From the NCBI GenBank assembly GCA_030693325.1, contig JAUYAV010000019.1, forward strand, positions 1,324 through 65,323: a stretch of 64,000 bases of DNA, written 5' to 3'. This document shows positions 3,584 through 49,028 of the stretch, in pieces. The translations under genes and the position numbers were made by a program. Source of the stretch: a bacterium. Lineage in GTDB: Bacteria; Patescibacteriota; Minisyncoccia; UBA6257; MFKM01. The notes under the pieces were generated by a model that worked only from the letters and a program-made list of their open reading frames with translations, was not told the origin of the DNA and ran no database searches. Positions within the stretch are counted from its first letter, which is position 1, and each line of letters opens with the position of its first letter.

Positions 3584-3627
3584 GTAATTGGGTAATTACT
3601 GTAATTACGGTAATTACTTAATTACTA
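3577..3627. repeat. GTAATTAC palindromic 9-mer array (yebC/ruvC spacer)
   Basis: tagtaattgagtaattgggtaattactgtaattacggtaattacttaattact. Confidence 0.7.
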
Positions 3628-3636
3628 AAATTTTCT

Positions 3637-4137
3637 ATGAAAATTTTAGGTATTGACCCCGGCAGTACTCGCATCGGTTACGGCTTAATTGATAAAAAGG
3701 GAAGTGATTTAAAATTTCTTAAAGCCGGCCTTTTAAAAATTTCATCTACAAACAAAAACCAGCGATTACTGGACTTGGAAAATTCATTTACTCAACTGCT
3801 TAAAAAAGAAAAACCTGACTTAGTCGCCTTGGAAAAACTTTATTTTGCCAAAAATCTAAAGACCGCCCTGGAAGTCAGCCAGTCGCGGGGAGTTTTGATT
3901 TTGATAATTTTAAAAAATAAACTGCCGCTGATTGAAATCTCTCCTTCCGAAGCCAAGCTGATAGTCGCCGGCGACGGCCGGGCCTCAAAAGAAGCCGTCG
4001 CTAAAATGGTTGGCCATTGTTTAAAAATTAATACCGCCAAACAAATTGATGATATTACCGACGCGCTCGCTTTAGCGATCGCCGCCGTCAATATTTACCG
4101 CAATTCCCTGCGGGGGTTGACCCCGTTAGAAGTCTAA
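3637..4137 (+). CDS. ruvC: Holliday junction resolvase RuvC
   Basis: MKILGIDPGSTRIGYGLID... RuvC N-terminal catalytic-Asp motif; 166 aa. The last codons and the stop lie inside a repeat element. Confidence 0.85.
   Translation: MKILGIDPGSTRIGYGLIDKKGSDLKFLKAGLLKISSTNKNQRLLDLENSFTQLLKKEKPDLVALEKLYFAKNLKTALEVSQSRGVLILIILKNKLPLIEISPSEAKLIVAGDGRASKEAVAKMVGHCLKINTAKQIDDITDALALAIAAVNIYRNSLRGLTPLEV
4112..4136. repeat. Inverted-repeat element arm GGGGGTTGACCCCGTTAGAAGTCTA
   Basis: Identical 25-mer at 38042..38066; partners at 4219..4236 and 4290..4311 in opposite orientation. Confidence 0.8.
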
Positions 4138-5746: not shown

Positions 5747-8212
5747 ATGAAGCCAAAAAAGAAAAAAATTATAAAAATATTCGGTTTGACAACGCTGGTT
5801 GTTTTAGTTTTAGCGGCAACCGGTTTAATATACCTGTCTTCGCTGATAAAAAATTTACCAGTTTTAGACCAAATCAGCGACTACCAACTGGCCCAGTCAA
5901 CTCAAATTTACGACCGGACAGGCAAAGTCCTGCTCTACGAAATCCACGGTCAGGAGAAAAGGACGGTCATTCCTTTTGAAGAAATCCCTGATTATGTCAA
6001 AAAAGCGACTATCGCTATTGAAGACCACGGTTTTTACAACCATCCTGCTTTTGACCTTAAAGCCATTGTCCGGGCCCTTTTTAATAATTTAATTCATGGC
6101 CAATCCAAGGGCGCATCCACTATTACCCAGCAATTAGCCAAAAATGCTTTCCTTTCGCCGGAAAAAACAATTCAAAGAAAAATAAAAGAACTCGCCTTGG
6201 CCATTGAGTTGGAGCGTTATTACGCCAAAGACGAAATTTTAACTTTTTATCTTAACCAAATCCCTTACGGCTCAAATATTTACGGCATTGAAGCCGCCGC
6301 CCAGGCCTATTTCGGCAAACCAGCCAAAGAACTTGACTTAGCCGAAGCCGCCGTTTTGGCCGCCGCGATCCAGGCGCCCAGTTATTATTCTCCCTGGGGT
6401 TCTCGTTTGGACGAACTTAAAAAACGCCAAGAACTTGTTTTGGACGAAATGTTAAAACAGGGTTTTATTGATGCCGGGCAAAAAGAACAAGCCATAAAAA
6501 CCAAACTGGTTTTCGCCTCTCCGTCTCTTAGCGGCATTAAAGCCCCGCATTTTGTTATGGAAGTGAAAGAATATCTGGTCAACCGCTACGGAGAAGAAAT
6601 GGTCCAAAAAGGCGGTTTAAAAGTTATCACGACACTTAATTACGAACTGCAGAAATCAGCGGAAACAGCGGTGACTGAAGGCGCCCAACGCAATGATACT
6701 CTCTATAAGGGAAAGAACGCCGCCTTGGTGGCTCAAGACGCTAAAACAGGCCAAATTTTAGCGCTGGTTGGCTCTCGCAACTATTATGATATTGAGAACG
6801 AGGGCAACTTTAATGTCGCTACCCAGGGCCTGCGCCAGCCCGGTTCCGCGCTCAAGCCCTTCGTTTATCTGACCGCTTTTGAAAGGGGGTATACTCCGGA
6901 CACGATATTATTTGATGTGCCTACTGAATTTACCGCCAACAATCCACTCTGTCCCGCGATAGTTGATTTCAACAATGAGAATCCGGTTTGTTTTCATCCT
7001 CGTAATTTCGATAAACAATTCCGTGGTCCGGTTGATTTAAAAAATGCCCTAGCTCAATCAATCAACATACCTGCGGTCAAGATGCTTTACCTGTCCGGTT
7101 TGGATAATGTTGTAAAAACTCTTCACAATTTCGGCATCACCACCTTGACCGATCCCCGGCGTTACGGCTTATCGCTGGTTTTAGGCGGCGGCGAAGTCAA
7201 GCTTATAGATTTAGTTGAGGCCTATTCCGTTTTAAGCCAGGAAGGGATCAAACATCCCCAGACCATAATTTTGGAAGTTAAAGACAGTAATGGAAAAATT
7301 CTGGAAGAATATCAAGACCGAAGTACAAAAATCGTTGATCCGCTTTATCCGCAATTAATAAACAATATTCTTTCCGACAAGGATTTGCGCCAGCCGCTTT
7401 TTTCTTCCAGTTTGAATCTCACGGTTTTCCCAGACCAGGAAGTCGCCTTGAAAACGGGAACCAGCAACAACTTCCACGATGCCTGGGCTTTGGGCTACAC
7501 CCCCTCTTTTGTGGTCGGGGTTTGGGCCGGAAATAATAATAATGCCCCGATGCAACAGCAAGCCGGCAGTATTCTGGCTGCCGTTCCTATCTGGCACGCT
7601 TTTATGGAAGAGATTTTAAAAAATGCGACCACTACCGAAACCTTCACCCGGCCGTATTCGATTTCAGCCGAAAAACCCATTCTCCGCGGCGAAGCCGTTA
7701 TTAACTATCAAGTCAATGGCGTGGAATATCCTCAAATTCATGACATTCTTTATTATATAGACAAAAACAACCCCCAAGGGCCAATCCCTCAAAACCCCCA
7801 AGACGATCCGCAATTTCAAAACTGGGAAGAAGAATTAATGGAATGGTTGAAACAGAATCTTCCGGATTTCAGCCGTTATAATCAAACGCCGCCGGGGTTA
7901 ACCCAGAATTCCAATACCGGACAAAATTCCAAACTGGAAATTGCCGCCTTTTCGCCTAATAATGGGGATTTCGTGAAAGACGCGATAAATATTAAGGCCA
8001 CAATAAAATCAGATGTTAATCTGGATAAAATTGAACTCTATTTTAATAATCAATTAATTGACCGCAAAAGTCCGGGGTCTCTTGGAGTATATGAATACCA
8101 ATACCAAATTGCCAATCAAAAATTTGATCTCCAAAATTCTCTTAAAATAAAAGTCAGTGATGTTTACGGAAATTCCGCCGAAAAAGAAGTAATAGTTTTT
8201 CAATTACTGTAA
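5747..8212 (+). CDS. Class A penicillin-binding protein (glycosyltransferase + transpeptidase) with C-terminal Ig-like extension
   Basis: Start moved to the in-frame ATG at 5747 (MKPKKKKIIKIFGLTTLVVL... TM anchor); the upstream part of the track ORF overlaps divergent tyrS. GT51 motifs (EDHGFYNH, QQLAKN); transpeptidase motif SALKP (Ser-x-x-Lys). Confidence 0.85.
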   Translation: MKPKKKKIIKIFGLTTLVVLVLAATGLIYLSSLIKNLPVLDQISDYQLAQSTQIYDRTGKVLLYEIHGQEKRTVIPFEEIPDYVKKATIAIEDHGFYNHPAFDLKAIVRALFNNLIHGQSKGASTITQQLAKNAFLSPEKTIQRKIKELALAIELERYYAKDEILTFYLNQIPYGSNIYGIEAAAQAYFGKPAKELDLAEAAVLAAAIQAPSYYSPWGSRLDELKKRQELVLDEMLKQGFIDAGQKEQAIKTKLVFASPSLSGIKAPHFVMEVKEYLVNRYGEEMVQKGGLKVITTLNYELQKSAETAVTEGAQRNDTLYKGKNAALVAQDAKTGQILALVGSRNYYDIENEGNFNVATQGLRQPGSALKPFVYLTAFERGYTPDTILFDVPTEFTANNPLCPAIVDFNNENPVCFHPRNFDKQFRGPVDLKNALAQSINIPAVKMLYLSGLDNVVKTLHNFGITTLTDPRRYGLSLVLGGGEVKLIDLVEAYSVLSQEGIKHPQTIILEVKDSNGKILEEYQDRSTKIVDPLYPQLINNILSDKDLRQPLFSSSLNLTVFPDQEVALKTGTSNNFHDAWALGYTPSFVVGVWAGNNNNAPMQQQAGSILAAVPIWHAFMEEILKNATTTETFTRPYSISAEKPILRGEAVINYQVNGVEYPQIHDILYYIDKNNPQGPIPQNPQDDPQFQNWEEELMEWLKQNLPDFSRYNQTPPGLTQNSNTGQNSKLEIAAFSPNNGDFVKDAINIKATIKSDVNLDKIELYFNNQLIDRKSPGSLGVYEYQYQIANQKFDLQNSLKIKVSDVYGNSAEKEVIVFQLL

Positions 8213-8240
8213 TTACGGTAATTACGGTAATTACGGTAAT
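8202..8240. repeat. GTAATTAC palindromic 9-mer array (PBP/dnaN spacer; includes PBP stop codon)
   Basis: caattactgtaattacggtaattacggtaattacggtaatt. Confidence 0.8.
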
Positions 8241-8241
8241 T

Positions 8242-9351
8242 TTAAGCCCTGATCGGCATCAGAATATAAAACCAATTTTTGTCAGCCGGAGACTTAACCA
8301 CCGCCGGTTGATTGTCATTATTGAATCCCAGGATAATTTCTTTGTCCTCCAATGATTTCAGCCCGTCAAGCAAATACCGGCCATTAAATGAAATATCCAG
8401 ATTATGCCCGTTAATTTTAGCCGGCAATAAATAATGGTTTTCCCCCACGGCGCTATCGGCGGAATAAATTTCCAAAAATTTTTTATTTTCTCCGATTTTT
8501 AATTTTATCTCGTTGACCCTGCCGGAAAAAATACTGGTCAATTTTAAAGCATTCACTAATTCGCTTTTATTAATCACTAATTCGCTTTTAAGCTCCTGAG
8601 GGATAATGCTTTGATAATCGGGAAATTTTCCTTCTATCAACCGCGAAATAATTTCCAATTCCCCTGTTTTGAAAAGTATCTGGTTTTGGTTTATAGAAAT
8701 ATCCAATTCGCTGTCATTAGGGACTGTTTTTAAAATCTCTTGAAGAGTTTTTAGGGGAATTATAATTTCAAACCCTTCTTCAAAATTACTTTTAAATTGG
8801 TCGGCGGAAATAATTTTCTCCGATAATCTAAAACTATCCGTGCCGGTCAATTTTAGATAATCAAGCTGATAACTAAATAAACACCCGTTGATTTCCGGCC
8901 GAATTTCAGAATACTGAATACTATTAATAATTTTTAATAAGGCTGATTTAAAAATCCCTGAATTTATTTTTATAAATTTATCAGTGTGGTTGATCTTTGG
9001 AATAATCGGAAAATCCTCGGGATTCAACCCTTGAATAGTCGCTTCGTAATTATCGGTTTTTATTAATAAATTAAAATCTTTATTTTCTAAGGTAATTCTC
9101 TCAGTTGTTAAATTATTGACGATATTGGAAAAAATATTTAAAGGGACCGTTATTAAGCCGCCTTCTATGATTTTCCCGGGCGCCCGATAATTAACCGCTA
9201 ATTCCAAATTAGTGCCCGAAAAATTAATTTTATTATCCTCGCTCTTAATGAGAATATTTTTTAAAATCGGCAAATTTAAGTTATCCCCAATTGCGCCCTC
9301 AATAGAACGCAATGCTTCTTTTAAATTATTATTTAATATAATTAATCTCAT
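8242..9351 (-). CDS. dnaN: DNA polymerase III beta sliding clamp
   Basis: 369 aa with three-domain length; MRLIILNNNLKEALRSIEGAIG...; directly downstream of dnaA. Confidence 0.85.
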   Translation of the reverse strand: MRLIILNNNLKEALRSIEGAIGDNLNLPILKNILIKSEDNKINFSGTNLELAVNYRAPGKIIEGGLITVPLNIFSNIVNNLTTERITLENKDFNLLIKTDNYEATIQGLNPEDFPIIPKINHTDKFIKINSGIFKSALLKIINSIQYSEIRPEINGCLFSYQLDYLKLTGTDSFRLSEKIISADQFKSNFEEGFEIIIPLKTLQEILKTVPNDSELDISINQNQILFKTGELEIISRLIEGKFPDYQSIIPQELKSELVINKSELVNALKLTSIFSGRVNEIKLKIGENKKFLEIYSADSAVGENHYLLPAKINGHNLDISFNGRYLLDGLKSLEDKEIILGFNNDNQPAVVKSPADKNWFYILMPIRA

Positions 9352-9554
9352 AATAGTAGTAGTGTTGGTTTAATTTGTGGAAATATTATTTTTTTTGTTT
9401 CTAAATATAGATTTTTACTTAAAATAACTTGTGGAAATTTATTGGAAAACCGGGGATAAAATAAATTATTTTTTTCCGCCCGCCGGCGGATATATTTTTT
9501 TATCCTCTTTTTATTAAGTTAATATTAACAATAAATTCACAACTTATCCAGATA
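9352..9554. promoter_or_regulatory. AT-rich dnaA-dnaN spacer with DnaA-box-like motifs (candidate oriC part)
   Basis: tttgtggaaat (x2; reverse complement ATTTCCACA), cacaacTTATCCAGA, ggggataaaat; strongly AT-rich. Confidence 0.5.
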
Positions 9555-10952
9555 TTAAACAGATTTATTTATTAATTCTTTTATTAAAATTATCTTTTGG
9601 TTTAAAACCGGATTTTGGTTAATTTCTTTGGAAATTTTTTCGCAGGCGTGAATAACAGTGGTGTGGTCTCTTTTCCCGAGTTTTTCTCCGATAAAAGGAT
9701 AGGAGGCGTTAAGCATTTCCCGAAGCAGGTACATGGCAATCTGGCGCGGTTCAACTACCTCTTTCTTTTTACATTTGGCGATTAAATCGGGTAGTGAGAT
9801 TTCAAAAAATTCAGCTACGGTTTTAACTACGTCATTGGGGTTGATGTTCTTTGTATTAACCCGCACCACTTCATTAATAATTTCTTCCAGTTTCTGGCCG
9901 TCAATTTTCTCTTTCCTGACATCCTCTAAAAAAACAACCTTATTTAAAACTCCTTCTAATTCCCGAATGTTCTTTTTAACCTTACTGGCTATTAATTCCA
10001 GGGTTTTGTCGTCTATTTGCCATCCATTTTCCTGGGATTTTGCCCTTAAAATGGCTAATCTGGTCTCATAATCGGGATAGCTGATATCAGCTATCATTCC
10101 GCCCTCAAAACGCGAGCGCAATCGTTCTTCAATAGTGGGGATGGCGGCCGGCGGGCGGTCTGAGGACATTATTATCTGTTTGTTGTTCTCATATAAAGCA
10201 TTAAACGTATGGAAAAATTCTTCTTCGGTTCTTTCTTTGCCGCCGATAAATTGAATATCGTCAATTATTAAAACATCAACATCCCGATATTTTCTTTTAA
10301 TATCGTCCATTTTTTTATTGCGAATCGCCCAAATAACATCATTGACGAATTTTTCCGAAGTGACATAAAAAACTTTTACTTTATTTTTATAAATACTTTT
10401 AATTTCATTGCCGACTGCCTGGAGAAGGTGGGTTTTGCCCAAGCCAACGCCGCCGTAAATAAAAAGAGGATTGTATTTTTTGCCAACATCTTTCATCACC
10501 GCCATCATCGCGGCATAAGCCAATTCATTGGAAGAGCCGACAATAAAAGATTTCAAGGTATAGCGGGGGTTGAGATTTGATTCCGGGTCAATTTTTAATT
10601 CAATCAGTGGTCTTTGATTGTCGGTTTCAATAATAGCTTCCGAATCAATCCCCTTCTTGATTTTTATCAAATTTTTTTGAGGCTGGCTTTCAACAGTGTA
10701 TTCAACAACCCTGATAGAACTGTCTAAATTTCTTAATGACCCTAAAATTAATTTATGATAACGGTTTTTTACCCACTCTTTCGCAAAATTATTCGGCAGT
10801 CCGACTAATACCGTGCCGTCGCCTTCTTTTTTATCAATAAGACGACTGTTCTTTAGCCAAGTGAGAAAATCCGGCCGCGAAAGTTGGATTTCGATTTCTC
10901 CTAAAACGCCTTGCCAGAGATCGTTAAGGTTTATGTCAGTCATTGTTTTCAT
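9555..10952 (-). CDS. dnaA: Chromosomal replication initiator DnaA
   Basis: Walker A GGVGLGKTHLLQAVG; Walker B VLIIDDIQF; C-terminal DNA-binding domain; divergent from rpmH. Confidence 0.93.
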   Translation of the reverse strand: MKTMTDINLNDLWQGVLGEIEIQLSRPDFLTWLKNSRLIDKKEGDGTVLVGLPNNFAKEWVKNRYHKLILGSLRNLDSSIRVVEYTVESQPQKNLIKIKKGIDSEAIIETDNQRPLIELKIDPESNLNPRYTLKSFIVGSSNELAYAAMMAVMKDVGKKYNPLFIYGGVGLGKTHLLQAVGNEIKSIYKNKVKVFYVTSEKFVNDVIWAIRNKKMDDIKRKYRDVDVLIIDDIQFIGGKERTEEEFFHTFNALYENNKQIIMSSDRPPAAIPTIEERLRSRFEGGMIADISYPDYETRLAILRAKSQENGWQIDDKTLELIASKVKKNIRELEGVLNKVVFLEDVRKEKIDGQKLEEIINEVVRVNTKNINPNDVVKTVAEFFEISLPDLIAKCKKKEVVEPRQIAMYLLREMLNASYPFIGEKLGKRDHTTVIHACEKISKEINQNPVLNQKIILIKELINKSV

Positions 10953-11047
10953 TTTAAACTATAAAATCCACAAAGCAAGATTGCAAAAAAATACCTTTTG
11001 TGATTTACTTGTTGATAAGTTGGGGATAAGTGTTAAAATTAAACAAA
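10953..11047. promoter_or_regulatory. dnaA-rpmH divergent spacer with DnaA-box-like motifs (candidate oriC / dnaA promoter)
   Basis: aaATCCACAaa; ttgttgataag (reverse complement TTATCAACA); ggggataagtg (reverse complement TTATCCCCA). Confidence 0.5.
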
Positions 11048-11182
11048 ATGTCAGTTACCTATCAGCCAAAAAAGAAAAAAAGAAGCAGATCTCACGGGTT
11101 TCTGAAAAGAAAGCGAACTGTTGGAGGCCGACGAACGATAACCAGGCGCCGACAAAAAAATCGGAAAAAATTAACGGTTTAA
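11048..11182 (+). CDS. rpmH: 50S ribosomal protein L34
   Basis: [44 protein letters not shown] (44 aa). Not in the ORF track because it is short; classic position next to dnaA. Confidence 0.9.
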
Positions 11183-11188
11183 TTCATT

Positions 11189-11875
11189 ATGTTTAATAAG
11201 CTGCTCTACCAGCCGATTCTTGAGTTTTTGATATTTATTTATAAATTTATCGCTTTTCATGATTTGGGCTTGGCTATTATTTTATTGACAATCTTCATAA
11301 GATTGTTGCTTTTGCCGTTTTTTTATCACGGGGCGAAGGAACAGACAAAAATTCAAAGATTGCAGCCCTTGGTTAAGAAAATCCAGGAAGACCACAAACA
11401 CGACAAAGAAAAACAAACTCAGGCCTTAATGGCGCTTTATAAAGAACACAGTATCAATCCCTTCTCCAGTATTTTGCTTTTGATTATTCAATTGCCGATT
11501 TTAATCGCTCTTTATCGGGTTTTTCTAACCGGACTTTCCAATACCATTTTTGATAGTCATAATTTTTTGGGGTTAATTAATTTAAACCAAAAAAGTTTAT
11601 TGATAACGGTTTTGGCGGTTTTGGCGCAATATCTGCAGGGACGAATGATGTTGCCGAAAAATACCGGTCAGGCCACAGGTGCTGACAAAACCAGCCAGGC
11701 AATGCTATTATATATCGGACCGGCGCTGACTCTTATTATCTTGACCAATCTTCCGTCTGCTCTCGGTCTTTATTGGTTGGTTTCTTCTGTTTTTTCTTTG
11801 GGTCAGCAAATTTTTATTAATAAAAATTTAGAAAAACATGGAACAATTATCGGAGAAAATAAAAAAACTGCTTGA
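11189..11875 (+). CDS. yidC: Membrane protein insertase YidC (short form)
   Basis: 228 aa polytopic protein; follows rpmH; conserved YidC/Oxa1 C-terminal helices. Confidence 0.8.
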   Translation: MFNKLLYQPILEFLIFIYKFIAFHDLGLAIILLTIFIRLLLLPFFYHGAKEQTKIQRLQPLVKKIQEDHKHDKEKQTQALMALYKEHSINPFSSILLLIIQLPILIALYRVFLTGLSNTIFDSHNFLGLINLNQKSLLITVLAVLAQYLQGRMMLPKNTGQATGADKTSQAMLLYIGPALTLIILTNLPSALGLYWLVSSVFSLGQQIFINKNLEKHGTIIGENKKTA

Positions 11876-18253: not shown

Positions 18254-18287
18254 AATTACAGTAATTACAGTAATTACTGTAATTGTT
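18254..18287. repeat. GTAATTAC palindromic 9-mer array
   Basis: aaattacagtaattacagtaattactgtaattg. Confidence 0.8.
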
Positions 18288-37999: not shown

Positions 38000-38041
38000 A
38001 GTAGTTGATTATACCAATTCCGGATTTTTCTGAAAAGGCGC

Positions 38042-38066
38042 GGGGGTTGACCCCGTTAGAAGTCTA
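38042..38066. repeat. Inverted-repeat element arm GGGGGTTGACCCCGTTAGAAGTCTA (identical to 4112..4136)
   Basis: Exact 25-mer repeat; the partner arm GACTTCTAACGGGGTTGACA at 38169..38188 gives a 14-bp inverted repeat flanking ~100 bp. Confidence 0.8.
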
Positions 38067-41707: not shown

Positions 41708-41758
<51 letters not shown>

Positions 41759-45000: not shown

Positions 45001-45326
45001 TTGTTTCTATAGGTGGGCAAGGGTTAAAGGGTCTTTCTTATGGCAACCTGACTGCAATCAATACTAAAGGTATCCAAGAGCTTTACCAAAAGGTGCGTGG
45101 AGTTGATACGGCAGAAAATGGGGATGTAGCAATAACCGGCAACGTCGGCATCGGGACGGCGGATCCGGGAAGTTATAAATTAAAAGTCGTTGGAACTGTA
45201 AGTGTAAATAGCGGCACTAATATTATTTACAGATGCACAACCGCGGGAACGCTTCCAATCGGAGCATTAACAATAAATTCAGGAAATTGTGGCGCGAGTG
45301 CTGATACGGGGTTAAGTGTGAATTAG
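42060..45326 (+). CDS. Giant type IV pilin-like protein: class III signal + LamG-like lectin domain + GNVGIGTTxPG tail-fibre-like repeats + C-terminal S74 intramolecular chaperone domain
   Basis: Start at ATG 42060: MNKSNTG/YTLIELLIYTVIFAISVG prepilin signature with Glu at +5. LamG_3-like block (WHLITVTYDG...LYVDG...FNGSIDDVRIYN). Five GNVGIGT(A/T)xPG repeats. C-terminal SDISLKSNIRPIEYGLADLLKLQPRSYEMNADGLPQIGFVAQEVEGIIPELV matches the endosialidase-chaperone (Peptidase S74) consensus SDxRxK...GfIAQEVeevlPelV. Confidence 0.75.
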   Translation: MNKSNTGYTLIELLIYTVIFAISVGVFSGVLITFTRVQTQTSADSELTQQLSFVQSTIQRLVRDSANIQNPAGVASSSLVLRMASSSLDPTVISSDANGIYLQQGTGEVIPITNSQVKVAQFEAIKYENPNAHAIVQVNIALTYNSQNPYQQITRALKIAIGRVSAATFDDSLIPNTNNSFSLGDATYKWKDINISNLLNVGQLITDPVAGAQNGSIYYNTSSSAFRGYANSVWSVLGGVGWAASSTNIYNTNAGNVGIGTASPGDTLDVNGSIVTTGIQDTGKTTKMWLSGAIAAKTLDYMEYSSDANAQVAYVSNATIANPISHWKMNDNAATTVVVDSMSANAGTADANTDTLDTTGKINGALLCSVSPVRAVAIGSTGFPAVNTARSVSHWVYLTSRNAIGGTFSFGYGTGDTNKGWAIDAGGTSSTTPLRVAGYSNDWSTNYTLPLNEWHLITVTYDGTNLLKLYVDGTLQDSTTSYTFATVLSTAYIGGNWDGSAAYRFNGSIDDVRIYNFVLTATEVLGLYNNNAGTELQNPQGNLQSYSEATIKTQGSYALKAVAAITTSLNKTLTRTVSPTIDLSNQTQIKFDIRASRPGSNIKIGIHDSGGTTTETTPNIASADTYQTITWDISTVTNANKDAIDQIIVTIINADAANTFYIDNLYSPSVGSLADIIFTTASSERMRIDSSGNVGIGTTVPGAKLQISNADQTYALTLEDARTGNGHWVRFTEGGTEKWVLGQVGSGVAGRADNFEIVSGNGTTRLAIASTTGNVGIGTTGPGSLLHVKHPSGNLTTRFEGLSNSYSSKMYLSSVSSGDGGMMYDAASNLSNIFSYGDLRFNVGTANISGAIGNERMVIQQGGNVGIGTTGPGSRFTVYQNVSGATTAGMELRYDGTIHRKMYMNYSGDMYFYNGTNEGYLSSAGVWTNASDISLKSNIRPIEYGLADLLKLQPRSYEMNADGLPQIGFVAQEVEGIIPELVSIGGQGLKGLSYGNLTAINTKGIQELYQKVRGVDTAENGDVAITGNVGIGTADPGSYKLKVVGTVSVNSGTNIIYRCTTAGTLPIGALTINSGNCGASADTGLSVN

Positions 45327-45351: not shown

Positions 45352-45376
45352 TATCAAGGTTGAGCCTCAATAATTT
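45352..45376. repeat. Cassette-boundary imperfect palindrome TATCAAGGTTGA(A/G)CCTCAATAAT (copy 1 of 5)
   Basis: Further copies at 45727..45746 (inverted), 46227..46250, 46448..46473 and 47260..47282 (inverted). Confidence 0.7.
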
Positions 45377-45650
45377 AGAATTTATAGGTAGTCCTAAAAC
45401 TCATCGCAGTCTCCATCCGCAAACCTACCCCTCGAAGCCTTTCAACGGAGACAGCCTGCCGCCTATAATTTAATCTTGCTTTTTATCCCCCTCTCCCGTT
45501 CCCTTCAATTTCCTTATCTCCTCCCCGATCTCATCAAAAAATCCCTCATAGAATTTCTTGTCTTCTACGGTTATTTCCCCTTCTTTCAATCTCTCCGCGG
45601 CTTTCTTTTAATCTCTTGGTGTTTTCACCCCCGCCACCGGGTAATAAGTT

Positions 45651-45682
45651 CCTCACTGATATACTTAAGTATATCAGTGAGG
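45651..45682. repeat. Perfect 32-bp palindrome CCTCACTGATATACTTAAGTATATCAGTGAGG
   Basis: Read directly; a 22-bp core copy is at 46358..46379. Confidence 0.9.
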
Positions 45683-45787
45683 AAGAATATCTTTTTATTT
45701 TATAATTATCTAAGAAGTACATTATCGAGGTCGAACCTTGATAATTCAAATTGACAAAAAGTTTTAACACGCTAAAATAATAATTAT

Positions 45788-46009
45788 ATGTCTAGACAAT
45801 TTACGGCAATATACAAAAAAAGCGGAAAATGGTATCTTGGCTGGATTGAAGAAATCCCGGGAGTGAATACACAAGGGAAAACCCTCAAAGAAACCAAAGA
45901 AAACCTCAAAGAGGCGGTTTTGTTGATTCTTGAAACCAACCGCGCTCTCGCGAAAAAAGAAGCTCGCGCCGGCGGAATAACTCGTGAATCAATTTCAGTT
46001 TCTTTATAG
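45788..46009 (+). CDS. hicB: HicB-family antitoxin
   Basis: TAIYKKSGKWYLGWIEEIPGVNTQGKTLKETKENLKEAVLLILE matches the HicB/UPF0150 fold signature. Promoter TTGACA-16-TAAAAT lies upstream. Confidence 0.7.
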   Translation: MSRQFTAIYKKSGKWYLGWIEEIPGVNTQGKTLKETKENLKEAVLLILETNRALAKKEARAGGITRESISVSL

Positions 46010-46019
46010 ATTATTTATA

Positions 46020-46217
46020 ATGAAGCGGAAAACCTTAATCAGTTATATTGTTAAAAACGGATGCATATTCATCAGAGAAGGCGCGAAACACAGCGTCTTT
46101 TTTAATCCCTTGATCAAACGTTCTTCTACCGTGCCGCGGCATAATGAAATTGATGATTTTTTAGCCAGAAAAATTTGCCGCGATTTAGGAGTTAGCGAGT
46201 TCAAAAAACAAAAATAG
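46020..46217 (+). CDS. hicA: HicA-family mRNA interferase toxin
   Basis: Start moved to MKRKTLISYIVKNGC... REGAKHSVFFNP...VPRHNEID fits the HicA (YcfA-like) pattern around the catalytic His. Directly follows hicB. Confidence 0.65.
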   Translation: MKRKTLISYIVKNGCIFIREGAKHSVFFNPLIKRSSTVPRHNEIDDFLARKICRDLGVSEFKKQK

Positions 46218-46473
46218 ATTGTAATATATCAAGGTTGAACCTCAATAGTTTCTAGAAGCGATTCAAAATTGTCCCGATTTCATCGAGGTCCGATGACTCG
46301 CGACTCCTGTCGGAGACTCTCGACAAAGTCGGAGCAAATCCATCGTAATCTACGAAGCTGATATACTTAAGTATATCAGTACGAATTAATGCGAGATTTC
46401 AAAATCAACGGCTCAACGGGAATTCCCGTTGAGCCGTTGAAATATTTTATCAAGGTTGAACCTCAATAATTTT

Positions 46474-46560
46474 TTGAGATTTTTATTATACTTTAGCCGG
46501 TGTTTGGGCTATTACTAAGGTCTGTTTTTTTATTTCTTCCAAAAGTTTTTTGTCTTCAAT
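46474..46560. repeat. Partial duplicate of the recA 3' end and downstream sequence (direct repeat with 47296..47395)
   Basis: 38 + 33 identical nt blocks (gagatttttattatactttagccggtgtttgggc ... tttttttatttcttccaaaagttttttgtcttc). Its minus-strand reading frame ends ...[23 protein letters not shown], like RecA. Confidence 0.85.
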
Positions 46561-46596
46561 TGACTTTCGATTTTTGGGTATGATAAAATAAGACAT

Positions 46597-46827
46597 ATGG
46601 TCACTATCACTATTCCTAAAAAAGAATATCAAAACATCATTCAGAGACAATCGCTTCTTGAAAAGGAAATGGGGTTTTTGAGAAAGACCCTTTTCGAGCT
46701 GGATGAGATAAATATTAAGCCGTCTGTCTTGCGCCGATGGGAGCGTATTAGCCGTGAGCTTGATCGGGGACACGGCCGTTCTTTTTCTTCGTTTAGTGAG
46801 ATGAAAGGATGGTTAAGAAATCTCTGA
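46597..46827 (+). CDS. Putative antitoxin of RelE/ParE-type module
   Basis: 76 aa; immediately upstream of the toxin with 1-nt spacing. Confidence 0.5.
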   Translation: MVTITIPKKEYQNIIQRQSLLEKEMGFLRKTLFELDEINIKPSVLRRWERISRELDRGHGRSFSSFSEMKGWLRNL

Positions 46828-46828
46828 T

Positions 46829-47122
46829 ATGGCCGAGAATGTCTATAGAGATATTGTAAGAATTATATATTCCCGTGAGGTTGAAGACGCTCTCAAGAAA
46901 CTCAAAAAGAGAAATAAAGATATATTTGATAGAGTCGAAAAACAGATAATCAAAATTCTTCGCGAGCCGAATATCGGCAAGCCGCTCCGCTACACTTTAA
47001 GAAACCGCCGACGGGTGCATGTCGGCTCTTTTGTTTTAATCTACGAATTTCATCAGGGCGAGTTGCGCTTTATTGATTTTGATCACCATGATTTAATTTA
47101 TAAGAAGTCCAAGCAGCAATAA
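46829..47122 (+). CDS. RelE/ParE-family toxin
   Basis: ...EPNIGKPLRYTLRNRRRVHVGSFVLIYEF... fits the RelE/StbE fold pattern; 97 aa. Confidence 0.6.
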   Translation: MAENVYRDIVRIIYSREVEDALKKLKKRNKDIFDRVEKQIIKILREPNIGKPLRYTLRNRRRVHVGSFVLIYEFHQGELRFIDFDHHDLIYKKSKQQ

Positions 47123-47317
47123 TTAAATGAGAAAGCCCGAATTTGCAAGCAAGAAATCAATATCGTACACAGCATATTGGGAACATCCGCGAAAATTAGG
47201 CAAACGTGCGGCAAACAAAAGCGAACGGCAGGGCGCGAAACGGAAATTATGGGTTTCTCTTGAGGTTAAACCTTGATAATAGATAACATTAATAGATGTT
47301 TCTTTTTGAGATTTTTA

Positions 47318-48319
47318 TTATACTTTAGCCGGTGTTTGGGCCGCGGTGAGGGTCTGTTTTTTTATTTCTTCCAAAAGTTTTTTGTCTTCTTTTAATTTTA
47401 ATTTGGCGGCTTCAAGACCGACACCTAATTTTTCTTTATTGAAACTGTAAGTGTTGCCGGATTTGATGACACTGCCGTATTTAATAGCGGTATTCAAAAC
47501 ATCGGCTTCCGGGACGATTCCTTCGCCGAAAATAATTTCAAACTCGGCGATTTTAAAAGGCGCTGCCACTTTATTTTTGACTACCTTAGCATGCACCAGC
47601 TGGCCGATTATTTCTTCGCCTTTTTTCAGTTTGGCTTTGGCCCGGATATCAATTCTAATTGAAGAGAAAAATTTCAAAGCGCGGCCGCCGGGAGTCGTTT
47701 CGGGATTGCCGAACATAATTCCGATTTTCATCCGGATTTGGTTGATAAAAATAATGACGGTTTTTGATTTGGAAGTAATGGCAGTTAATTTTCGCAGGGC
47801 CTGGCCCATCATCCGGGCTTGCAAGCCCATAAATTGATCGCCCATTTCGCCTTCAATTTCCGCGCGGGGAGTAAGAGCCGCCACCGAGTCCACTACGATT
47901 AAGTCAATTATTCCTGACCTTACCAGACTTTCAACGATATTCAGGGCCTCTTCGCCGCTGTCCGGCTGAGAAAGTAAGAGGTCGTCGGTTTTTACCCCAA
48001 GTTTTCTTGCGTAATCAATATCAAAAGCGTGTTCGGCGTCAATATAAGCGGCTTTGCCGCCTTTTTTTTGAAGCTCGGCAATGGCATGAAGAGTTAAAGT
48101 GCTTTTGCCCGACATTTCCGGGCCGTAAATTTCCACCATCCGGCCGCAGGGCAGACCGCCTACTCCCAAAGCCAAATCCAGAGAAAAAGAGCCGGAAGGG
48201 ATGACCTCGGTTTTGCCGATTTTTTTATCTCCGAGCCGCATTATAGATCCTTCGCCGAATTTAGTTTTTAAACTTTCAATTAAATCGGAAAAATCTTTGT
48301 CTTTATTGGTTTTGTCCAT
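47318..48319 (-). CDS. recA: Recombinase RecA
   Basis: Walker [11 protein letters not shown]; L1/L2 loop regions; 333 aa. Confidence 0.95.
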
Positions 48320-48331
48320 AATAGTGTTCGC

Positions 48332-48376
48332 GAATTACTGTAATTACTGTAATTGCTGTAATTGCTGTAATTACTT
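48332..48376. repeat. GTAATTAC/GTAATTGC palindromic 9-mer array
   Basis: gaattactgtaattactgtaattgctgtaattgctgtaattact. Confidence 0.8.
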
Positions 48377-48984: not shown

Positions 48985-49028
48985 AAATTACAGTAATTAC
49001 TGTAATTACGTAATTACAGTAATTGTTG
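48985..49028. repeat. GTAATTAC palindromic 9-mer array
   Basis: aaattacagtaattactgtaattacgtaattacagtaattg. Confidence 0.8.

Follow-up and report, generated by a model that had tools for sequence, protein, structure and literature searches.

A mobile RelE/ParE-type toxin-antitoxin module inserted beside a duplicated recA 3' end in a patescibacterial cassette island

The locus analyzed here lies in a 64,000-nt stretch of contig JAUYAV010000019.1 (positions 1,324 to 65,323; assembly GCA_030693325.1) from a metagenome-assembled genome (MAG) of the patescibacterial lineage MFKM01 (Minisyncoccia, UBA6257), and this whole stretch is referred to below as the window. An intact recA gene, the product of which is identical to NCBI entry MDP3052759.1, converges on the gene of a 1096-aa surface protein that ends at 45326, and the two are separated by a 2-kb island of four cassettes bounded by five 21-bp imperfect palindromes (consensus TATCRAGGTTGAACCTCRATA), hereafter called sites (Table 1). 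Following the order of the island, these units are the non-coding cassette A, a HicB/HicA cassette, the non-coding cassette C and a RelE/ParE toxin-antitoxin (TA) module (unit D). The TA module stands between two copies of the recA 3' end, one forming part of the gene itself (resident tail) and one lying detached beside site 4 (pseudo-tail). Loci of related genomes used for comparison are designated by L-numbers.

Table 1. Features of the recA-proximal island (window coordinates; ORF, open reading frame; UTR, untranslated region).
Feature	Position	Strand	Remarks
Palindromic site 1	45352-45372		marks the distal island end; the surface-protein gene (1096 aa) stops 25 nt before it
Cassette A	45373-45722		terminator-like palindrome 45649-45684; no recA tail by nhmmer
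Palindromic site 2	45723-45743		bounds the HicBA cassette on its 5' side; -35 of the cassette 7 nt downstream
HicB-like gene	45788-46009	+	PF21748
HicA gene	46020-46217	+	PF07927
Palindromic site 3	46227-46247		3' boundary of the HicBA cassette
Cassette C	46248-46447		no ORF; palindrome 46358-46380 (GATATACTTAAGTATATC type); terminator-like perfect palindrome 46405-46440
Palindromic site 4 (TATCAAGGTTGAACCTCAATA)	46448-46468		immediately beside the pseudo-tail
recA pseudo-tail, putatively displaced (repeat copy 2)	46471-46557	-	ending QTLVIAQTPAKV and stop; nhmmer E=4.9e-18; abuts site 4
Fused 95-aa ORF out of the pseudo-tail	46486-46773	-	antisense to the antitoxin gene; no Pfam family; probably not a gene
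9-nt divergent patch	46510-46518		8 mismatches against 47342-47350
Mobile TA module (AAT + promoter, antitoxin, toxin, ORF49 region)	46558-47249	+	88-94% identical to copies in at least seven other contexts
Antitoxin candidate, 76 aa	46597-46827	+	no Pfam or NCBIfam family
RelE/ParE-superfamily toxin, 97 aa	46829-47122	+	PF05016 ParE_toxin E=1.6e-8; weak YafQ and RelE/StbE NCBIfam hits
ORF49, small and basic, 49 aa	47127-47276	+	conserved in L094 and L098; candidate gene, coding uncertain
Palindromic site 5 (TCTTGAGGTTAAACCTTGATA)	47258-47278		sole site inverted relative to the TA strand; followed by spacer 47279-47302 and the recA 3' UTR
Resident recA tail (repeat copy 1)	47303-47389	-	15 nt of 3' UTR, stop codon (47318-47320) and last 23 codons
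recA, intact, 333 aa	47318-48319	-	Pfam RecA E=5.6e-125; TIGR02012 E=6e-142

The initial annotation of this DNA had described a duplication of ~95 bp with ~88% identity at the recA 3' end. Alignment of the copies confirmed the duplication and refined it to a direct repeat of 87 bp (46471-46557 and 47303-47389) with a spacing of 832 bp, which encloses an insert of 744 bp. Both copies agree at 79 of the 87 positions (90.8%), arranged as two perfect 39-nt blocks around a 9-nt patch, and all eight mismatches fall inside this patch, at 46510-46516 and 46518 (TATTACTAA in the pseudo-tail, CGCGGTGAG at 47342-47350 in the resident tail). Except for a (GA)n microsatellite, the 39-mers are the longest exact repeats in the window, and in ten shuffled versions of the window the longest exact repeat measured only 14-18 nt; the 87-bp repeat is far above chance. 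A minus-strand ORF fused out of the duplicated copy, which the same annotation had pointed out, does exist but is most likely spurious (Table 1). Two possible roles of the patch were considered and rejected: a terminator hairpin formed by it in the resident tail, which folded no better than shuffled sequence, and the template/variable repeat pair of a diversity-generating retroelement, as no reverse transcriptase is present and the eight mismatches involve all bases rather than being adenine-specific.

Between the two copies, a candidate antitoxin gene and a PF05016 toxin gene were identified, which bears out the RelE-type TA cassette proposed initially for this position. A promoter-like site (TTGACT-18-TAAAAT) precedes them, with its -35 at 46560 and its -10 ending at 46589, and the antitoxin ORF ends 1 nt before the start of the toxin, which is identical to NCBI entry MDP3052758.1. 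With a small toxin gene preceded by a small antitoxin gene in one predicted operon, the module has the sequence hallmarks of a type II TA system of the RelE/ParE superfamily. The downstream ORF49 may be a third component of the module. Among the nucleotide differences in ORF49, one of 15 falls at codon position 2, and the frame is apparently unannotated in NCBI.

Comparison with relatives lacking the cassette identified it as an insertion. L001, L083 and L102 have neither a TA island nor a repeat after recA: in L001 the gene is followed by 82 bp and the convergent surface-protein gene, the same arrangement is found in L083 with 49 bp, and no TA cassette or site follows recA in L102-107. None of the loci examined carries the duplication without the cassette. 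TA cassettes were found after recA in the window, in L097, in L099 (RecA 93%; HicBA) and in L100/L101 (RecA 92%; a different ParE cassette), and the idea that recA-proximal DNA is an insertion hotspot, also raised by the initial annotation, therefore holds for this clade. The other 80 recA loci from Patescibacteria show neither a duplicated tail nor a site, and TA genes of this kind are absent near recA, which confines the phenomenon to the close clade. The polymorphism extends to within one species: over 1649 bp L097 and L001 have 98.0% identity, homology is lost at the recA stop, and of the two only L097 has the module. Single-nucleotide polymorphisms (SNPs) between these two recA genes cluster at 210-405, at 797-815 and from 951 on, with none elsewhere, and the last cluster starts in the conserved GAAGACAAAAAACTTTTGGAAGAAATAAAAAAACA block of the recA 3' end and runs into the island. 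Such clustering is the mark of tracts of homologous recombination with their ends in the recA 3' end, a process that is active at this locus. In addition, several independent assemblies of one relative (L104-L107, and L102 and L103) end 260-510 bp after recA, and these ends are consistent with strain heterogeneity at the same hotspot. In two Yanofskybacteria loci, 40-50 bp just downstream of recA are repeated a few kb away with 88-90% identity, namely in L035 (8998-9047/12800-12849) and L058 (9013-9053/7390-7430).

Toxin homologues with 87-94% identity led to further module-bearing contigs. When the window was compared with L097, the module (46558-47110) was 94.4% identical and the adjacent recA and RodZ-like genes 78.3%, a difference that shows horizontal transfer of the module. 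In L097 the module adjoins recA, with the toxin stop only 5 nt from the recA stop and no duplication. Elsewhere, the module was found upstream of an aminoacyl-tRNA-synthetase-like gene (assigned by eye) with a HicBA cassette nearby (L084-93, 89%), after a YafQ-like cassette (L094-96, 89%), before transporter and type IV secretion system (T4SS)-pilin genes with a site at the module's 3' end (L098, 94%), 4 nt before a leuS-like gene (L108, 93%) and among different flanking genes in L109/110 (88%). In L084-93 it is flanked by a 75-nt direct repeat, composed of a long palindrome plus a site, at a spacing of 838 bp. Across these contexts the left end of module homology lies at 46558 or 46560, i.e., 1-3 nt past the pseudo-tail, with 46546 in L109/L110 as the exception, so that the end of the module coincides with the inner edge of the repeat. 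The right ends vary by context (47110, 47119, 47124, 47145, 47239 and 47249). L084 also contains a ~75-bp hairpin element (1133-1208) with TTGAC direct-repeat flanks that splits the -35 region of the TA promoter and looks like an insertion of the miniature inverted-repeat transposable element (MITE) type.

The site pattern matched five times in the window, against 0.02 matches expected, and all five lie within the island. With up to four mismatches allowed, matches in ~1.2 Mb of fetched loci (a count that leaves out two viral loci, L081 and L082, fetched by the site pattern itself) were confined to the recA-proximal islands of the clade and to TA arrays with the same module, plus one match in the Mur-ligase gene of L100 that is presumably due to chance. 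The viral matches lie inside a phage structural gene and were dismissed as chance. Sites in relatives are located at 39 and 134 in L097, 474 in L098, 1710 and 2204 in L099, 7020 and 7560 in L100, 1892 in L084 and 4193 in L001. L097 and L100 have a promoter in common, TTGACTTTYGATTTTTGG, that follows the site without a gap (...ATAAT/TGACTTTTGATTTTTG...) and precedes two different TA families. The island-free L001 retains a single degenerate site, compared with four cassettes and five sites in the window; by eye only, L083 seems to retain a weaker one. Cassette boundaries follow the sites in two further alignments: the HicBA unit of the window (45722-46248) is 88% identical to that of the closest relative, L099 (1709-2225), with homology running precisely between sites, and window positions 45603-45746 are 79% identical to L100 7557-7702, ending at the same kind of site. 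Hairpins formed by the sites are weak (-3 to -7.6 kcal/mol) and lack a U-tract, and sequence rather than structure alone is conserved, for which reasons a function as intrinsic terminators was rejected; Rfam gave no credible match in the island. From its distribution and conservation, the palindrome is a candidate recombination site, of no known family, for adding or exchanging cassettes. No integrase or recombinase was found in the insert or the 2-kb island, nor among 20 mid-size ORFs of the window or by motif scan. A second, perfect 18-bp palindrome (GATATACTTAAGTATATC) occurs in the window at 45656-45678 and 46358-46380 and in six copies in L100 (7627-8668), where the copies surround a gene for a Trp_repressor-like helix-turn-helix protein (7878-8267; PF01371 E=1.9e-11) and are probably its operators.

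A search with a profile of seven recA tails (nhmmer) returned two extra copies, the pseudo-tail of the window and one in L100 (7673-7761, E=2.3e-11). The latter begins at a more upstream recA position than the pseudo-tail of the window and is located behind the different ParE cassette plus a site and a palindrome; it has a 21-nt internal deletion but keeps the 3' UTR motif. It is 72% identical to the recA tail of L100 itself and close to the alleles of L099 and the window, and the structure is present in two independent assemblies (L100 from JGI, L101 from ENA). The segment leading into it is shared with cassette A of the window, which indicates that the L100 pseudo-tail is older than, and independent of, the 87-bp copy. 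A third, older pseudo-tail within cassette A was considered, but homology there is limited to this lead-in segment and nhmmer detects no recA tail, and it is not claimed. As to the order of events in the window, the pseudo-tail followed by its 3' UTR (TCTCAAAAA) and site 4 repeats the native L100 order of recA, 3' UTR and site, and the same 3' UTR motif is conserved in the island-free L102. The distal copy accordingly looks like the former resident 3' end, while the tail now on recA is followed by an extra spacer and the inverted site 5.

The divergent patch corresponds to the RecA residues between KKQT and AQTPAKV, where two to three residues vary in almost every RecA allele of the genus (P0121-P0150; TAA, AAA, AVA, ATA, IAA, VAA and others). 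Nucleotide differences are clustered at this variable C-terminal spot, and the recA 3' ends of the genus appear to be mosaic. Just upstream of the patch, the block GAAGACAAAAAACTTTTGGAAGAAATAAAAAAACA is almost invariant. It is contained in a 38-nt stretch (47355-47392) that forms the longest identical run between the recA genes of the window and L001, which are ~80% identical overall; apart from L001, the other five tails aligned differ by at most 1 nt over a 35-nt core. AAA/GAA codon bias in a conserved peptide accounts for much of this invariance, and the run is long enough to serve as a homology anchor.

For the locus as a whole we favor an insertion-duplication that was driven by homology, took place at the margin of a flexible cassette island and regenerated recA, a reading to which we would give about an even chance of being correct. 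The incoming DNA would have been a RelE/ParE-type module of ~0.75 kb linked to another recA 3' end, for which the genus offers donors with modules directly after recA. A molecule of the order AATTGACT, module, site 5, spacer, 3' UTR and tail would have recombined with the resident tail, either as a circular intermediate by Campbell-type insertion-duplication, or through one homologous crossover in recA combined with one non-homologous joint 87 bp inside the resident tail. The incoming tail would have completed recA, and the old tail with its native 3' UTR and palindromic site would have been pushed beyond the module. In either route, the crossover would depend on ordinary homology with the conserved recA 3' end as anchor, and an att core would not have been the substrate of a dedicated integrase. 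Separately, the cassettes of the island may be reshuffled at the 21-bp palindrome by a recombinase encoded outside the island. The order GATGTTTC, 87-nt tail, AATTGACT would occur only in a circle or tandem form of the element.

The initial annotation had interpreted the locus as site-specific integration into the recA 3' end with regeneration of the target, and the insertion and the regenerated, intact recA stand, while the terms "site-specific" and "att" are not supported and are in part contradicted. In this scenario, a non-autonomous element made up of the TA module and an attP equivalent to the recA 3' end would have entered an attB in the recA tail with the help of a tyrosine or serine integrase encoded elsewhere, leaving the 87-bp repeats as attL and attR. 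Direct repeats do flank the insert next to a regenerated target gene, relatives without the island exist, the conserved 35-38-nt block of the tail could be the core, three contexts have the same left module end, and the pseudo-tail of L100 with its other TA cassette suggests a repeatable process. Homology-driven insertion is nevertheless favored because no integrase was found in the insert, the island or the window ORFs checked, because the module of L097 adjoins recA through a different joint without a repeat, because the pseudo-tails of the two events differ in their limits and start at different recA positions, because the right ends of the module are variable and because the clade contains donors with the module directly beside a recA tail. 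Site-specific integration is further opposed by modules at non-recA loci that carry no recA sequence, by the origin of block conservation largely in codon bias and by the conserved boundary being the palindrome, and is in our estimate possible but unlikely. A local event was also considered, in which the array first consisted of site 4, module, site 5, 3' UTR and recA, and an 87-nt copy of the recA end was inserted later at the boundary of site 4 and promoter, e.g., by templated break repair. In its favor, site and promoter are fused in the canonical cassettes of L097 and L100 (...ATAAT/TGACT), and the 87 nt of the window, with AAT on both sides, split exactly that junction; yet a fresh copy should equal its template, whereas eight of the nine patch bases differ, and the pseudo-tail of L100 lies off the site/promoter junction and matches the resident tail at only 72% identity. 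We know of no documented templated-copy mechanism of this kind in these organisms, which also counts against the local event, and regard it as improbable.

For an ancient tandem duplication of the recA end with later insertion of the cassette there is nothing specific in favor: no relative has the duplication without the cassette, the inner edges of the repeat lie within 1-3 nt of the ends of a mobile module, and flanks of nearly perfect identity speak for a recent event, which makes this history highly improbable. Nor does a metagenome assembly chimera of two strain haplotypes sharing the recA tail appear more than a very remote prospect. The source is a MAG, the locus is strain-variable and the assemblies of one relative (L104-L107) break just after recA; however, an assembly path through the shared 39-mers would enter the body of recA and not AATTGACT, the junction 46557/46558 needs real reads, and an analogous structure is present in the two independent assemblies of another lineage (L100 and L101).

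Several observations weigh against homology-driven insertion-duplication. The left joint GTCTTC/AATTGACT lies at the exact nucleotide of the site/promoter junction in L097 and L100, and the same left end occurs in L108, which hints that a site-specific cut defined the incoming end. A site-specific enzyme may have made this end, e.g., by aberrant excision at the edge of a site that captured the neighboring recA end. The occurrence of two independent pseudo-tails could likewise mean that an enzyme acts in a systematic way. Outside the patch, the two tails of the window agree at all 78 nt, even at lineage-variable positions, which is odd for independent alleles unless both came from one population or were homogenized by gene conversion. 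Site 5 is inverted, the spacer (47279-47302) is unexplained and the joint shows no clear microhomology; a candidate microhomology between pseudo-tail and module (CTTCAAT and the L097 site arm GCTTCAATAAT) was rejected as unconvincing, since an extra 3-nt deletion would be needed. Sequence alone does not separate RecA-dependent from integrase-mediated recombination, and the basis is the assembled sequence of one window of one MAG. An intermediate reading, in our view quite unlikely, would join both kinds of process: a genus-wide family of integrase-less TA cassettes would share the 21-bp site and a common promoter and accumulate at the recA 3' UTR, some members would have captured a recA tail by aberrant excision and use the 38-nt block as a portable homology landing pad, and RecA would insert them and regenerate its own gene. 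If true, this would represent a mode of mobility between site-specific integration and plain homologous replacement.

Genomes of Patescibacteria (Candidate Phyla Radiation, CPR) are small, and to our knowledge their gain and loss of accessory genes is little characterized. At the present locus, TA cassettes come and go between strains at one constant point, 9-38 nt beyond the recA stop. The palindrome, should it be a recombination site, would define a new cassette system without a linked integrase, and if the recA tail is a portable homology arm, selfish cassettes would be exploiting a universally conserved gene. As recA is a common marker in phylogenetics and multilocus sequence typing (MLST), errors of typing and breaks in assemblies can result from mosaic 3' ends and pseudo-tails.

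Other repeats were observed in the window. A (GA)23 microsatellite (41710-41756) lies between a CofD-like gene and the gene of the 1096-aa surface protein, the N-terminus of which is prepilin-like by eye, and slippage in this tract could cause phase variation. Tandem arrays with a 9-nt period (GTAATTACN) occupy intergenic positions 3594-3617, 8202-8241, 18263-18284, 48333-48375 and 48986-49007, one of them directly before the recA start codon. A 27-nt sequence (GCGGGGGTTGACCCCGTTAGAAGTCTA) occurs in two exact copies, at 4110-4136 and 38040-38066, and a similar motif (CCCCGTTAGAA) follows the recA stop of L099.

Searches of the paper library gave no account, for Patescibacteria, of TA islands adjoining recA or of the 21-bp palindrome. 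Integrative elements that enter gene 3' ends and duplicate an att site are classically associated with tRNA and tmRNA genes, and also use protein-coding genes. The locus resembles these elements in that the insert lies between repeats of the target 3' end, the gene is left intact and relatives (L001, L083, L102-107) have a single, unoccupied target. It differs in having no integrase in cis, an insert of only 744 bp, junctions that are not reproducible between lineages and an 87-bp repeat with a divergent patch. A mobile element that targets recA has been described in Vibrio cholerae (RME; PMC4405046); it is 32.8 kb long, interrupts recA internally and supplies a complete second recA. Its genes include those for XerS and a phage integrase, its inverted repeats measure 9 bp, and it is excised in circular form (PMC4405046). 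Here, too, a mobile element targets recA and the function of the gene is preserved, but the duplication is limited to the final 23 codons, and a recombinase is absent.

The island as such can be compared with integron arrays and clusters of attC sites lacking integrases (CALINs), including the TA cassettes of chromosomal superintegrons, as it consists of small cassettes of the same orientation that end in imperfect palindromes, with TA cassettes carrying their own promoters; the site center GTTGAAC fits GTTRRRY, and one site persists in the island-free L001. In contrast to integrons and CALINs, the array is bounded by the surface-protein gene and recA, and no IntI, attI or Pc was seen. Integron attC sites comprise 57-141 bp with R''/L''/L'/R' boxes and extrahelical bases, whereas the sites here are simple palindromes of 21-25 bp, and the ends of module homology often fall within the flanks and not on the sites. 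Small size, frequent TA content, short palindromic bounds and absence of an own recombinase are shared with the plasmid dif (pdif) modules of Acinetobacter and with Xer-dependent integrative mobile elements exploiting Xer (IMEX). The pdif sites, however, are 28 bp long (XerC-6-XerD, 11-6-11) and alternate in orientation, while those of the island follow a 10-1-10 pattern and, except for site 5, one orientation. A chromosomal dif or IMEX location was rejected, as the island lies ~35 kb from the origin region (dnaN, GC-skew minimum) and not at the terminus. The origin region (window 8242-11875) is indicated by dnaN (8242-9351), a yidC-like gene (11189-11875) and the minimum of cumulative GC skew at ~10-12 kb; a 465-aa ORF at 9555-10952 is presumably dnaA.

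Closest to the mechanism favored here are insertion-duplication and homology-facilitated illegitimate recombination (HFIR), reportedly described for naturally transformable bacteria by de Vries and Wackernagel and by Prudhomme and colleagues in 2002. Both are laboratory phenomena, whereas the event at recA is known from sequence: an anchor and a duplication are present and recA has mosaic SNP tracts, but the joint lacks clear microhomology. The likeness lies in foreign DNA placed beside a homologous anchor, and in a single crossover of a circle that duplicates a short homologous segment.

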